DNA of 64,000 nt from Curvularia clavata (taxonomy: Eukaryota), in the NCBI GenBank assembly GCA_023920165.1, contig CP089279.1:2108001-2172000 (forward strand), in the 5' to 3' direction. This document shows positions 28,433 to 64,000 of the stretch, one piece after another. The position numbers and the translations under genes are program-made. Positions within the stretch are counted from its first letter, which is position 1. Each line of letters starts with the position of its first letter. The notes below the pieces were generated by a model. It ran no database searches. It was not told where the DNA came from and worked only from the letters and a program-made list of their open reading frames with translations.

Positions 28433-31400
28433 CTACCTCACGGACTTTGAGCTTCTAATGCCTAGCTTTGCTAGCCCTTGTACCAGCTTTGACTGTTTGC
28501 CTGCGTATGCACGTCCACTACTATCCGTAGTTGGAGAAGAGACAGCAAGCTGGTGCTGCTTGTGCAATGCAAGCGCGTCAGTGTAGTGCTGGTGACACTT
28601 ACGCGTGGTTAAGTGAGCCCTCCCAAGCGCAGTTTCATACCCAGTGACCGCTCTCTCGTATAGAGCAAGAGCTTCGTTATAGTAATACTGATTTGTAAGA
28701 AGATTGGCAAGGCAGTGTACGCTCATCAGCGTAGATGTGTGCTTATGCCCGAGTACCTTCTCCTTCCGCGCCAGCGTCTGTCTGTTTATCGCTTCTGCCT
28801 CTTCGTATTTACCCTGGCTGCTTAGTACTTGTACTAAGTTATGCATACTTGTCAGCGTATCTAGATGCTCATGCCCAAGCACCTTTTCCATCAACGCTAG
28901 CGTCTTTCGGTTTATTACCTCCGCCTCTTTGTAATTGTTTTGCCTATTTAGTACTTGGGCTAAGTTGTGCATACTTATTAGCGTATCTGGATGCTCATAT
29001 CCAAGTACTTTCTCCCTCCGCGCCAGCGCTAGTCTGTTTATCGCCTCCGCCTCTGGGTACTTGCCCTGCCCGTATAGTAATAGCATCAAGTTGTGCATAC
29101 TCGTCAGCGTGTCTAGATGCTCAGGCCCAAGCACCTTCTCCCTCCACGCCAGCGTCTGTCTACTTATCGCCTCCGCCTCTTCGTGCTTGCTCTGGCTGTC
29201 CAGCACCAGCGCCAAGTTGCTCATGCTTGCCAGCGTATGTGGATGCTCATTCCCGAGCACCTTTTCCCTCCGCGCCAGCGCCTGTCTGCTTATCGCCTCC
29301 GCCTCTGGGTACTTGCCTTGGCTATCCAGTACTAGCGCCAAGTTGCTCAAACTCGTTAGCGTGTCTGGATGCTCGTACCCGAGTACTATTTCCCTCTGCG
29401 CCAGCGTCTGTCGGTTCATCGCCTCCGCCTCTAGGTGCTTGCTCTGGCTGTCTAACACTACCGCCAAGTTGCTCATACTCATTAGCGTATCTGGATGCTT
29501 ATACCCAAGCATCTTCTCTCTCCGCGCCAGCGCCTGTCGGTTTATTGTCTCTGCCTCTTCGTGCTTGCCTTGACTATTTAGCACTTGCGCCAAGTTGCTC
29601 ATGCTTATTAGTGTATCTGGATGCTTATACCCAAGCACTTTCTCTCTCTGCGCTAGCGTCTGTCGGTTTATCGCCTCTGCCTCTAGGTACTTGCTCTGGC
29701 TATCTAGCACTAGCGCCAAGTTGTTCATACTTGTCAGCGTGTGTGGATGCTTATGCCCAAGCACCTTCTTATACCCTGCCAGCGTTTGCCTGTGCATCGC
29801 CTCTGCCTCTTCGTACTTACCTCCAAGCTCTCTAGCTAGTCCTACCATCTCCATACTGTTCAGCGTTCTTATATCTTCTTCTCCAAACTCTTTGCTTCTA
29901 GTCTCCATCGAAATCGTCGCCATCTCTTCTGCTTCGCCTGCCCTCCCCTGTCGCCACGCATACCATGCTGCTCTATATAGCAACAACGCCCACTCTTTTC
30001 GTGACTCTCTACTCTTAGGCTGCTGTGATAGTGCCGCTCGTGTATGTGGAAACAGCGCTTGACACTTCTCCCAGTTTTCGTGCTCTCCTGTTGGCAGCTC
30101 TACGCACAGGTTTGAGATGAATTGCTCTCTCCACTTGTCTAGCTGCCCTTCGTTTTCAAGCCACGTACGCGTCGCTAGCTGTACTAGGCTGTGCATCTCA
30201 AACGTGTCTCTGGTTGCTGTAATAAACGAGTAGTCTCGCAGGGCTAGCACGTCGTCTTCAAATCTGTCATCTACTATACTACACTGTTGGTGGAGTAGAG
30301 CTTCCTGGATCCCCTGTCGGTCAAAGAAGCTCATTAGCGATAGCAGGTCTGCTGCTGACTGTCTTATACTTCGTATGTGGTTGAACGAGATCTGCCACGT
30401 TACTAAGATAGAGTTACTAGCCTCTAAGATGGAGTTGCTAGCTACTATACCTCGGCGAAGGTGACCCGCTTCGCGATTCAGTAGACTCGTTTTCCTGCGA
30501 TCGCTCTGCTGGTACTCCTTGAGATACTGCTGCACAGAGCACCGTGGTGCTCGCTCTCGAATATATGCTGCCGCCTGTACGAGAGCAAGCGGCATGTAAT
30601 CGAGCGTCGTAGCTAGTGTAGCGATGCTGTCGTCATCTTTGTCATCTATATCGCCTAGCTTCTTACGGAGCAGCGCATGTGCAGCCGCATCGTGCATTGG
30701 CTCAACTAGTATAATGTCACTATTCTCCACAATCTGCATCGCTGCGTGCTTTGCCCGACTCGTTATCAGGACTGTGCCGTATCTGCTGGGAGGCAGATAG
30801 CTCGATAAATGCTGCCGGAGACTACTGCTATCTGTCGGAGAGACTATAGCAGCATTGTCTATGTTGTCGAGCACTAATAGCCACTGTCCATTCTTCGCAT
30901 CGTGCAGCCAGTCGTGTACTAGCTTAAACACATCCACTTGCGGGTTCTTGCGCCCATAAGCCCTGACTTGGTTGGCGATCTCCTGGAAGCTCTGCTTAAG
31001 TCGCGCGGTGTTACTCGCATGCGCCCAGAACACCCATGTGTCCGGCGACTGTTCGGCAATGCGGTAGCAGTACTCGATGGCTAGCTGCGACTTCCTGTGT
31101 CGTATGTTAGGTGTGAGCACCAACCTAATGTTCCTTCCTTGGGCTTACCCCACGCCGCCGAGGCCCACCAGCGCTACCCGCGATGCTGGTGCTGCGCATC
31201 GCTTGCCAATCTGATCGAGCAGCGTTCCATGGTCGACGAAGTCTGGGTCGCGTCTAAACGGGACGTTGAACGACGGCTTAGGCGGCGTCTCGGGTCGTTC
31301 TAGCGTCGCGCTGTCGTCAGCGGCTAATAAACAAGCGCACGTATTTCAATAGCATTCAAGGCTGAGCTTACCTGGTGGTAGATAAGTGTAATTATATGCT

Positions 31401-32142
31401 AAAACCAGCATGGTCAGTACGAATTCATCGAAATGGACTTGGGCACGCTGTGAACTGATGCTAATAAAAAAGAAACCGCCTCGATTGAGAAATCAGTGTG
31501 ACCACGCGAGGACGGTAATTACGTACTGGAAGGGCCCTCATTGTACACACCAGGACTGATGATCTGCCGATTGTTGCTTCCACCAACTACATAATTCGTA
31601 GGACTGCCGCCTTCATTTGCAATAATGTTGCCCGCTCCAGCATGTGTATACTTGCCGTCCTCATCCCCTAGTGCTTCCGTAACTTGCTGCAGTGCATCCA
31701 GCTTGTCGCCAATAACATAGATCTCCTTCTGCTCTAACAGTCTCAAGTTGTCTTGAATGGTCACCAGAAGCTTCTGTACCTGGCTATCTCGGCCGAAGAA
31801 GACAGTCTTTGCGCCTCTCCAGATGCGCTTGGTACGATTCTCCCCATCTTTTGGGCACGCTTTCCTAAATATATCTCTTAGTTCAGCTAAAGCCTCCTCG
31901 CACTGTTTCAAAATCGGCTGTGCCTTCTTGCTGGCATCCTCTTTGATACTCTCTTCCTCGTAGCTCTCCTGCGCACTTTCCAACAGTTCTTGGATCGCTG
32001 GCAGCTTTTCGAGCAGGTCTCGAAGCTTTGGCGGTAATCCTTGAGCATCGTGAACGGCACGCCCAATGTCGATGATCGTATTAGCGATGCCGATGCAGGC
32101 GTCGATCAGCTGGATGGCGGTAATGGCTTCGGCACCGGACAT
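28433..32142 (-). CDS. NLR-like protein: SesA-like N-terminal domain, Gly/Asn-rich motif, NB-ARC, TPR array (~1151 aa, 4 exons)
   Basis: Exons 32142-31527, 31398-31372, 31299-31149, 31094-28433 join in frame (3456 nt). Splicing rebuilds ERPETPPKP..VPFRRDPDFV and P-loop GLGGVGKSQ. Walker B WLLVLDNID, LPLAL-like MPLAL, about ten 42-aa TPRs. Confidence 0.85.
28620..29880 (-). repeat. 126-bp tandem repeat array encoding TPR units
   Basis: Repeated xHPDTLxSMxNLAxVLxSQxKxxEAEAxxRQxLAxREKVLG units. Confidence 0.9.
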
Positions 32143-33000
32143 TTCGGATCATCGGTGCGTACACAAGCTGGGTGTGTTGGGTAGGTATGGGCGCGTATTC
32201 CGGAGGCAGGAGGGTATTCTAGCAATGCAGGCAGGCAGGCAGGCAGGCAGACAGGAAGGCGAGCAAGTCGCTTATAAACCAGACCGACAAGGTCCTCGTG
32301 GGGCTAGGACTAACATAGGCGCTTGCGCATGCATCAGAGGAGCTGCATGTTCATATCTTAGGCTGGGCTGAGAGCTGTCGAAGGCCCCCGGGGGTTCCAC
32401 CTTTCGGGCAGGCAGGCGCTTAGCTACCGCTCGCGATATGTGATAGATTATTACCGCTAATATACTTGCGGCTTTTCTATACGACCTGCAGCTAACGCCT
32501 TAAGCCGTTGATCCTGCAGAACTTGCACTGCAGCGCCACAATATTAGATACCGTGATACTTCGCTCGGGACAGACTCTTTGTATATGTTTGTATAGCCTT
32601 ACGAACTCTGAGATATATGCGAGAACCCTGCAGTACTTCCGAGGCCGCCACACGTGGAGGAATAGTAATCTGTATTCGTGTCACTTGATATTCATGGCTA
32701 TGGCTGCGTGTGCAGTCTTTGCAACGAGTGCAGTCATTCGTGTGTATGCACGCATGTGTACAAGACCCATCTTATCACCATCCTCCTTTTTAACGGTAAC
32801 GTACCGTAATGTGCTCAGGAAGTTTGAGTGTGTCTCTGGGTTTGCAGATCCCGCATCACCTGCCTCAGCATCCTCTGTCTCTGTTCTGCGAGTCAAGGCC
32901 TACATCCAGCAATCTCGCGCGCCTCTTCGTCCTGTGGAAAAGGGGGTAATCAACCCTTGGAGTCGCATTTCATATTCTTTGCTCGTGCGTGCAATCTTAT

Positions 33001-60591: not shown

Positions 60592-62541
60592 ATCCTAACA
60601 AACACCTCCAGATTTGAATGGGTAAAGCGAAAGTCGAGCAAGAGGAGGGCGAAAAGGGAGATCAACAGTCCAAAACAGCAGCAGCGTAAGAAAAAGAAAC
60701 AAGAGAGAGAGAGCACCAAACCCGGTGCGACTGCGGCGGCGAGCGAGCTGAAGAGTAAGACAAACTTGCATCGCTTCCATCCAAGCGTCAATGAGGCATC
60801 CAGCTCAGCCTCGCATCCTCCAGCTTTGCTGCGCGGACACCGATGCATCCACTCGGGACAATCAAAAACTGCTTACTGTCGCACTACATTCCTTCCCCGC
60901 CTATCCTTCATAGTGCTGATGGCCGCCCCCGCTGCTGAAGTTCCAGATAGCGCACATGACATGCAGTGGTGCTGATACGAACTTGAACCCAAAATATGTA
61001 CTCTACATATCGATAGTCGGGCTAGGGTGGGGGCGGCTTTGCCCCAATGAGGTATAGAATGACAATTTTGGGGGCTGCGCAGAGCGACACTACGCCGCGC
61101 CGTCGCCCGCGCTGATGGGTTGACATAGCCTCGCTGTAAGGCGTCGTGCTACAGGGCGCGGTTGTTGTGAACGGTTGTGCAGTATGTACGTGTGCATCAA
61201 ACCCCGCACAAGCGTGGTCAGCGGAGAATATCGAAAAATAAAGGAATAAAGAATCTAAGGCTGATTCTGGAATATGTGGGTGGCTAAAGAGCTCAAATGC
61301 AGTATCACATCGTGTGGCACTTTTTTCTTTCTTCTCCCCATAACTCTGAAACCATTTCAGCTCCTTGTACAAGCATCGCCGCCGCCATGCCATAGACTCA
61401 AGAAAATTGTTCGACCCATGCCTTTCCATCCTGTTGTGTCTGCCCCACTTAACGCTCTTGCATCCCCACTTGCGACTGCGGCCCTTTGTTCCTAGTAGGT
61501 TCCCTAGGTAGGTAAACTAATGGGGGCACTGACCAGGTCTACAAATAGCATAAAATTACAAATTACCGTTTGGTGTCTTTTTGAAAGAAAAGCAGCCTAG
61601 GTAAAGGAAGGTCTATATCTAGGATTTGTTTTGGATGCAAAGGTTTGAACAAATGTAAAGAGAGGTGGAGGAAGAGGTAAAAAGCTTGTTTGATACTACA
61701 TATACAGACATGTTGTTTTCTAGACCTGAGAGACACATAGAAGACTTGGTGTAGGAATACACTCGCTTGCACAATCGGTTTCGGGTCTGCGCATTATATG
61801 GAATACTGAGCCTACATGAGCTCTCCCTTGCTTAGCATAGCCTTAACTTTTATGGAAATAGCCCTAGTGTATAGGTGCTACTAGTTACTCGAGAAGGCGA
61901 AAGCTCACTAACAGTCATCGCGATATCACATGGTGTGTATGGAGCACAGCAGCAAAGACAGTAATAAAGAAAATAACCAAAACACTCGCATCCTGACTTT
62001 ACGGATAAGTTGTGTTAAGCTACATCGTGATATCGCTAGATAATATTCTGCTAGGGATCATATGATCGATTATGACGTGCTGCGATTCTGCGATTCTGGG
62101 GGCCATGGCGAGTTTGTATGCCACAGGTAGTAGGTTGCGGGGAAGACTGTTGACATTTGGTTATCCGCAACGTATGATCGAGCCGCAGTATTGGCGCGAA
62201 TTTCCTCACAGGCCAATAATCTTCGCAAAGCCATCGCTGCATCTCAAAGACGTCCCTGGTAGCAGGGCTTGAACCACCGATCATATGGTCGTCAAACGGC
62301 ATATGTAGGTGCAGTTGTTATCGAACTGTATTTAGGCAGTGGCTCAGCCTTGGAATCCGTGACTCGATGGATGCGCTGAACGTTGCAGCCCAGCCGCACG
62401 CCTATCAGGGTATACAGCTTCACTACCCCTCTGCTACGGAACAGCCGATCCTTTGATATCGACACACAAAATACTTGACTGAATGACAACGTGATCTAAC
62501 ACAATAGTGTAAACCTGTCATCCAGACGACGGTGTGGAGAC

Positions 62542-64000
62542 ATGTCTGGAGACCCACGACCCCACCAGCAAAGCATCAGTCATGTCTCTGGGCAACAAGG
62601 CTCCCGAGTGTATGTAGGGACCTTTAGCAACTGCCATTTGGGCAACAATGATGAACCCCAAAGTAAATTCACCAAGCCCTTACCGTATCTCTCAATCTTG
62701 AGAATCTGCAGCTGATGCGATCGCCTTTCAGAAGCGCCAGACCAAGCGGCCGTCGCGTGTCGCAACGCCCTCTTCCTCACCGATCCCTACGTCGACCGCG
62801 AGAGCGTGATCAGCGCAAAAGGCAAAAGAGTCGCGGGTACGTGTGAGTGGATCACACAGAACGAGAGCTACCGCGCCTGGTCGAACAGCGATAGCGACAG
62901 AGATGGCATTGGAGATACGCGCCTACTGTGGATCTCCGGCGGGCCCGGCAAGGGCAAGACAATGATGTCTGTCTTCCTGACGGAAGAGCTAGAGAGACAC
63001 ATAGAACATACAGACAACGCAGACCTAGTCTTCTTCTTCTGCAGCGCTCAGGACGAGAAGCGCAACACAAGTATTGCTATACTACGCGGGCTAGTACACC
63101 AGATTATTGTTAAGCGCCAGCAGTTAGTCCACCACGCGCTGCCGTACTTTGAGACGCCTGAGAGGACGCAGCAGACGCTGTCATCTCTAGAGACACTATG
63201 GATTATCTTCAGTAAGCTTATCGCTAGCGCCGAGCTAGGCACTGTATTCTGCGTACTTGACGGACTCGACGAGTGCGAGGATAGCACGCTAAGAGTACTG
63301 TTGCCTAGACTTGTAGACCTACTTGCAGATAGAACGCCATCGCCAAAGAATAGTGCGTTTAAGCTGGCGATTGTTAGCAGAGACCTGCCTGGCCTGCGAG
63401 GCTGCACGACGAGGGTGAAACTCGATCCTGATAATGACGAGAAAGTAGCCGGTGACATTGAGCTGTTCGTGTCCACCCGAGTAGGAGAGCTATCGACCAT
63501 CGAAGGGTTTAGCGAGAACTTTCGAGCATCAGTGCAGACAGCTCTCCTCCAACGCGCCGAGGGAACGTTCCTATGGGTGGGCTTTGCAATGTATGAGCTG
63601 TCGCAGAAACAGACGTGCGTTGAGATCTTAGAGGCGCTCAAAGAACTACCAAGCGGTCTTCCGGCCATTTATAGCCGCATGCTGCTGCAGATCCCAGCTA
63701 GGCAGAGAGAACTGAGCCAGGCGATCTTGCGGTGGGTGACTATGGCTGCCCGCCCTCTGCAGCTGCGAGAGCTGGCAGCAGCAGTAGGCGTGCAGGCTAC
63801 ATCACCTCAAATAACAGTGGATCAAGCAGTCCGCGACGCTATTGCGCTTTGCGGGCCATTGCTCAAAGTGCAAGAGAAAGAAGTTAGCCTTATCCACCAA
63901 TCGGTGCGGGACTATCTGCTACGCAAAGAGCGTGATAGCGATGCCGTGCTAGAGGCCTTTCGACTTATAGTAGAGCCTTCGCATCTTGAGCTTGCACAGA
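62542..64000 (+). CDS. NACHT-domain NLR-like protein with short N-terminal HET-s-like motif (partial, runs off the window)
   Basis: Exon 62542-62662, intron 62663-62731, then an open frame: CRNALFLTDP..GTCEWI, Walker A WISGGPGKGKT, Walker B FCVLDGLDEC, RAEGTFLWV, LPSGLPAIY. Confidence 0.85.

Follow-up and report, generated by a model that had tools for sequence, protein, structure and literature searches.

An orphan NACHT-ankyrin receptor of Curvularia clavata carrying an HRAM2-type motif, with candidate HeLo-like partners elsewhere in the genome

The window analyzed here is a 64,000-nucleotide stretch of the Curvularia clavata genome (G000:C6:2108001-2172000; genome of 32.4 Mb in 8 contigs), and positions given without a contig refer to it. 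An NLR receptor gene begins near its right-hand end (Table 1), and its stop codon ends beyond the window at G000:C6:2173295. The ATG at 62542 opens the receptor frame, whose translation reads MSGDPRPHQQSISHVSGQQGSRVYVGTFSNCHLG, and removal of the intron yields an 894-aa frame in which exon 1 is in frame with the NACHT domain. No Pfam family matched exon 1 at an E value of ≤10, whereas exon 2 matched NPHP3_N (126.5 bits), NACHT (28.5 bits), and the winged helix GPIID_WHD, in agreement with a preliminary description of this DNA that had placed an exon without an effector domain before the NACHT of an NLR. Nine ankyrin repeats follow outside the window, and pairs of equal length share 71 to 89% DNA identity. 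The receptor is a fungal NACHT-ANK NLR with both Walker motifs, a winged helix, and internally conserved ankyrin repeats. The same description had assigned it an NWD2-type architecture; that assignment falls because Pfam detected no WD40 domain in the receptor and its C-terminal repeats match ankyrin families only, so that the protein is NWD2-like in logic only. Its closest named NACHT relatives come from Didymella, Pyrenophora, Alternaria, and Bipolaris.

Table 1. Features of the receptor locus and of the two candidate effector loci
Feature	Position	Strand	Basis or remark
Upstream intergenic stretch, where relatives hold a divergent HeLo-like gene; effector and remnant absent here	60595..62541		tblastn, blastn
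Three-codon upstream ORF within the covered 5' region (contigs of X1, X11, and X15), shortly before the start codon	62483..62494	+	sequence
Coding part of exon 1 (40 codons and one further base), without effector domain	62542..62662	+	translation, splice joint
r0 amyloid signalling motif, residues 8-28 of 894, HRAM2-type by position criteria	62563..62625	+	effector-only profile, shuffles
Intron, 69 nt, GT..AG	62663..62731	+	skipped in contigs of X1, X15, and X9
Exon 2, NACHT NTPase and winged helix; runs on beyond the window	62732..64000	+	Pfam NPHP3_N, NACHT, GPIID_WHD
Intact NACHT Walker A motif	62938..62961	+	read from translation
Intact NACHT Walker B region	63253..63276	+	read from translation
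HeLo-like effector, 295 aa, two Q3 repeats	G000:C6:887605-888540		head-to-head (424 nt) with a paralogous NLR
HeLo-like effector, 298 aa, two Q3 repeats	C8:258645-259595		in tandem with another NLR paralogue

The gene model was compared with contigs from four runs, which represent relatives 95 to 99% alike, and the splice evidence therefore comes from relatives rather than from the sequenced strain itself. Runs X10 to X14 made up small shares, and X11 was the only one of these used. The splice joint 62662>62732 was present in the contigs of three of the four runs (X1, X15, and X9), from three studies, and database gene models of homologues are annotated with the same first exon. It had been proposed earlier that the motif reading would fail if transcripts started downstream of exon 1. 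The contigs of X1 and X15 start upstream of the ATG at 62542, and X11, the sole run of the four recorded as RNA, covers 62461-62660; the other three have no RNA record. Exon 1 is thus transcribed in relatives, but contigs of such relatives cannot fix the start site. One database model of the locus (P0001) takes a later ATG as its start and does not contain the motif; its intron was not seen in the contigs of the four runs. A short first exon can be dropped by gene callers, which hides the motif, and P0001 at the receptor locus is one example. In exon 2 (62732-63998), 59 of 1,267 nucleotides are different in the X1 allele, compared with 9 of 740 across exon 1 and the upstream region; such uneven divergence would be expected of a polymorphic receptor.

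The motif in exon 1, r0, occurs as a single copy at the receptor N terminus, is rich in S, H, and Q, and has one charged residue. Its residues include Q3, I5, V8, S14, R15, V16, Y17, V18, G19, and F21, with Gly at position 10. In order to score it with a profile, as the preliminary description had suggested, we built a 21-position profile from effector repeats alone. Its source was a set of 94 proteins retrieved by searching with a HeLo-like gene's C-terminal exon, 92 of which are shorter than 400 aa; 53 of these 92 supplied the 106 repeats, a few of which are visibly out of register. On this profile, r0 scored 21.9 bits, the runner-up among the 68,395 21-mers of the window scored -1.1 bits, and no shuffled version of exon 1 out of 20,000 attained the r0 score. 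The value lies below the 10th percentile (26.7 bits) of the effector repeats themselves when scored leave-one-out. Seventeen of 30 homologues with an N-terminal extension scored above 5 bits at the same place, and in the Bipolaris homologue P0018 the motif is identical to r0 at all 21 positions while the NACHT domain is 79% identical. Two other Bipolaris proteins, P0014 and P0023, have closely related NACHT domains and differing N-terminal motifs, and at the metagenomic locus L050 a NACHT relative is paired with a different effector type, a C8-type gene, suggesting that motif and effector modules may have been swapped.

The class of the motif was judged against the descriptions of Daskalov, Dyrka, and Saupe (2015; PMC4518210). 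An HRAM motif of any class has G19, hydrophobic residues at positions 5, 8, 10, 16, and 18, and often R or K at 15, and receptor-side repeats are rich in S and H and poor in charges. At position 3, HET-s (HRAM1) has N, HRAM2 has Q, and HRAM3 has H; HRAM4 and HRAM5 are marked by a core Q at 16 or 18. The general features are present in r0 as I5, V8, V16, V18, G19, and R15, and the Gly at position 10 recurs in the second HET-s repeat (r2). Q3 together with V16 and V18, without a core Q at 16 or 18, corresponds to HRAM2. HRAM1 has N3 and N20 where r0 has Q3 and T20; HRAM3 has H3, and on a profile of 112 H3 repeats r0 scored at most -44.5, a profile so narrow that its own cognate r0 motifs reach just -7.4 and -1.2. 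The HELLF type of HRAM5 is likewise excluded, there being neither QxFG nor Q in 16-18. By these position criteria, rather than by published profiles or logos, r0 is a predicted HRAM2-type motif, and not a canonical HET-s repeat, given Q at position 3 and the absence of N3 and N20. Consistent with this, the HET-s model PF11558 has no match on exon 1, since no Pfam family matched there, and none above its cut-off anywhere in the genome, where a single match below the cut-off lies antisense to a transporter gene. Among related Pleosporaceae, Curvularia lunata and Cochliobolus sativus are each listed with one HRAM2 and one HRAM3 motif and no HRAM1 (PMC4518210, Table 1).

The earlier reading of r0 as a HET-s-like repeat thus stands insofar as a single HET-s-related repeat is carried by an effector-less NACHT NLR, and requires correction in its class, which appears to be HRAM2 (Q3) and not HRAM1 (N3). 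The seven ungapped identities to HET-s r2 on which it was based recur in a count by eye (S4, V8, G10, S14, R15, V16, and G19) against the r2 sequence printed in the supplement of PMC4518210. In bioRxiv 10.1101/2020.07.06.188508, HET-s and HELLF, which belong to two HRAM classes, do not cross-seed; a test with HET-s PFD-GFP may therefore well be negative even with a working receptor.

We then asked whether an effector gene lies beside the receptor. Searches with tblastn (six queries, E value of ≤1) detected no HeLo or HeLo-like gene in the window or in the 18 kb downstream, and blastn against paired loci detected no remnant of effector DNA beside the receptor, in keeping with the preliminary observation that 60800-62500 holds no HeLo/HET-S partner. 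The neighbours are a membrane-protein-like ORF upstream and a DUF726 gene downstream, and a transposase-like fragment (L009:6086-6592) lies approximately 3 kb downstream of the receptor gene. A HeLo-like match was present in 13 of 80 metagenomic loci. All three metagenomic relatives with a NACHT identity of at least 70% and upstream DNA (L049, L050, and L051) have a divergent, head-to-head HeLo-like gene with two Q3 repeats at its end. Adjacency of effector and receptor was reported in 98 of 155 cases (PMC4518210), and the two-gene arrangement is thus common and not required.

A second, separate NLR locus lies within the window. On the minus strand, an ORF with a SesA domain (PF17107, 90 bits) and a G/N-rich end (31519-32148) is followed by a nucleotide-binding TPR-repeat ORF (28433-31144); the two are possibly spliced into one protein. 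The G/N-rich end may hold a sigma-like motif. The SesA gene was rejected as a partner of the receptor because no Q3-profile score was obtained there and its own TPR-type NLR adjoins.

Six close NACHT paralogues, the receptor included, were present among 54 NACHT matches in the genome. The studied receptor and a copy at C3:3.39M are intact orphans, copies at C6:889k and C8:260k are intact and paired with effectors, and the remaining two, at C7:2.83M and C3:4.36M, are broken, their degenerate motifs scoring 5.1 and -19.2 bits. Since two orphan paralogues are broken, orphans of this family do decay. Among the best 30 of the 54 matches, 4 have an N-terminal score of their own above 5 bits; the Q3-type N terminus of the C8 receptor scored -5.9 on the profile, which had been seeded from C6. 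A quick NACHT tree, with support mostly unstarred, placed the receptor among HELL-paired relatives, beside the broken C7 copy and P0018; given that support, we base no sequence of evolutionary events on the tree. The broken C7 paralogue (L011-L012, C7:2.82-2.83M) has transposase ORFs and a long tandem array around it, and its non-coding upstream DNA is shared with the studied receptor.

Profile searches of the genome gave 14 matches to HeLo, 17 to PF17111 (named HeLo-like in PMC9815663), and 12 to SesA. When the examined loci of this genome were scanned with the effector-only profile, the top seven of 361,122 21-mers were four effector repeats and three NLR r0 motifs, and the four repeats belong to two HeLo-like effectors (Table 1), counts of effectors and receptors that are lower bounds for the genome because they cover the examined loci. 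Both effectors splice to full frames, and the one on C6 lies on the same contig as the receptor, 1.28 Mb away. The preliminary description had left the partner as downstream, unlinked, or lost, and had noted that its reading would suffer if neither the species nor its relatives had a cognate effector. The intact Q3 candidates on C6 and C8 favour an unlinked partner, probably HeLo-like (PF17111) rather than HET-S, and a downstream position finds no support within 18 kb. The genome-wide search for HeLo proteins with two repeats that was recommended at the same time also returned two H3-type HeLo genes.

These 280-aa HeLo genes with H3-type double repeats (L020, C7:2.79M; L021, C3:474k) each stand head-to-head with an NLR bearing an H3-type r0, forming complete HRAM3-like pairs. 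They were rejected as partners, since they have adjacent receptors of their own and their repeats match r0 at only 2 to 4 of 21 positions. Further HeLo or HeLo-like genes at L017 (C7:953k), L018 (C5:868k), and L035/L130 (C6:1.295M) have ends of the N-G-x-Q-x-G type, resembling the PP motif.

Between the two Q3 effectors, sequence likeness points to the one on C6. The receptor r0 matches the second repeat of the C6 effector at 9 of 21 positions (BLOSUM 38), the best of eight r0 motifs compared, while the NLR next to that effector matches the same repeat at 6 of 21 and r0 matches the C8 repeats at 4 to 5 of 21; such likeness is no proof of seeding specificity. The profile's own preference for C6 over C8 is partly circular, because the C6 effector served as its seed. 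In the N-terminal hydrophobic helix of this effector, residue 15 is Asp (L033:2098-2100), where close relatives have Gly and one database relative has Asp, and the hydropathy of this helix, 1.26, is the lowest among 10 locus-derived effectors (1.38 to 1.73 in the others). The C6 effector may be weakened because of these two features, and Asp15 may make it attenuated and prion-permissive, as HET-s is relative to HET-S.

A structure model of the C6 effector repeats (pLDDT 68.7) contained two rungs of paired strands. By VIA-align, it matched HELLF (6EKA) weakly (Z 4.7, rmsd 4.9, 51 residues aligned) and HET-s with Z values of 3.2 and 2.8. Foldseek returned no match at an E value of ≤0.001 for this model, HET-s and HELLF being among 19 weak rows. 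The predicted complex of exon 1 with the effector repeats (score 0.01, mark 0.34) speaks neither for nor against binding.

Taken together, these observations suggest that the gene encodes an orphaned HRAM2-type NLR that probably signals in trans to a Q3 HeLo-like effector by amyloid templating, a reading to which we give a probability of roughly two in three. The target would lie in trans because the studied copy has lost or left its neighbour; judged by motif likeness, it is most likely the 295-aa protein of C6 and less likely the 298-aa protein of C8. The proposed steps follow the NWD2/HET-S model as set out in PMC4518210. A ligand would bind the ankyrin repeats, upon which the NACHT domains would oligomerize; the clustered N-terminal r0 repeats would stack into a beta-solenoid seed, and this seed would convert the two C-terminal repeats of the HeLo-like protein. 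The freed N-terminal helix of that protein would then damage the fungus's own membrane, causing cell death.

The evidence was also weighed against other readings. The receptor may be stranded, with a real HRAM2 r0 but with its neighbour lost, without a functional target, and intact yet decaying. The missing adjacent effector, the two broken orphan paralogues with motifs at 5.1 and -19.2 bits, and the transposase-like fragment a few kilobases downstream would all be accounted for in this way. Such a receptor seems unlikely to have kept a full 894-aa frame with intact Walker motifs, splicing seen in three studies, and a motif unchanged in Bipolaris despite NACHT drift, in a genome that holds intact compatible effectors. 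Rather less probable still is an r0 that has no HeLo-like target and serves to stabilize the oligomer, to co-assemble paralogues, or to engage another effector class, such as an enzyme with a single C-terminal repeat. Q3-type N termini on four intact paralogues are compatible with such a role, and PMC9815663 describes HRAM-like motifs on PNP_UDP effectors that are often unlinked; but every neighbour with a matching motif beside a receptor of this family is a HeLo-like gene, and the seven top-scoring 21-mers of the 361,122 in the examined loci of this genome comprise effector repeats and NLR r0 motifs exclusively.

Two further readings concern the motif itself. That r0 is a canonical HET-s (HRAM1) repeat templating a HET-S-type HeLo protein draws on the 7 of 21 identities to HET-s r2 and is very improbable, given that Q3 and T20 replace N3 and N20, that PF11558 matches neither exon 1 nor, above its cut-off, the genome, and that the HeLo proteins with two repeats encoded in this genome are of the H3 type and share 2 to 4 of 21 positions with r0. 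We consider it the most improbable of all that the motif is untranslated or a chance likeness in a protein that begins at a later ATG: the downstream start of P0001 and the short upstream ORF before the ATG at 62542 would agree with this, but the observed splice joint sets exon 1 in frame with NACHT, and the shuffles (0 of 20,000) and the conservation of the motif in homologues argue against chance.

The reading of the receptor as an orphan acting in trans can be extended to the whole family. Four intact Q3-type NACHT-ankyrin receptors, two of them orphans, could converge in trans on two HeLo-like executioners, with the studied orphan fitting the C6 effector better than does that effector's own neighbour; for this wider arrangement we see an even chance. 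If true, this many-to-few network would be a named, testable case of a convergence that has been proposed. The set could be used to ask whether several unlinked NLRs can trigger one fungal cell-death effector, whether the HET-s fold is adopted by HRAM2 motifs, and whether a barrier to seeding separates these motifs from HRAM3 within one cell.

The receptor belongs to an already published family and is no new kind of system. HRAM2 pairs of HeLo-like proteins and NLRs were described by Daskalov, Dyrka, and Saupe (PMC4518210), and our literature search, which did not reach subscription papers, found no experimental study of HRAM2. As here, the published pairs have a 21-residue motif of the Q3 type, one on the NLR and two on the HeLo-like protein; the studied receptor differs from them in having no adjacent effector. 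The row for Cochliobolus carbonum Cocca1_9269 in that source has effector repeats almost the same as those of the C6 effector. An exact 6-mer search of its supplement gave 0 matches to r0, which is a variant.

Unlinked NLR-effector amyloid pairs, and activation of one effector by several NLRs, have been proposed in PMC9815663 and PMC5485727. As here, receptor-side motifs outnumber effector-side motifs in one genome there; those proposals mainly concern HRAM/NLR12 with PNP_UDP, or the general idea, whereas the present case allows a specific HRAM2 set to be named. FNT1/HELLF of Podospora anserina (bioRxiv 10.1101/2020.07.06.188508; PDB 6EKA) shares a HeLo-like effector with Q3 repeats, and the modelled effector repeats matched the structure of HELLF best, if weakly; the defining features of HELLF, QxFG and Q at 16-18, are both missing from the receptor r0, and the FNT1 and HELLF genes are adjacent. 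The HRAM1 system NWD2/HET-S of Podospora anserina shares a NACHT core and one N-terminal repeat that takes the place of an effector domain. NWD2/HET-S has WD40 repeats, N3 and N20, and an adjacent HET-S gene, whereas the studied receptor has ankyrin repeats, Q3 and T20, and an unlinked HeLo-like candidate partner.
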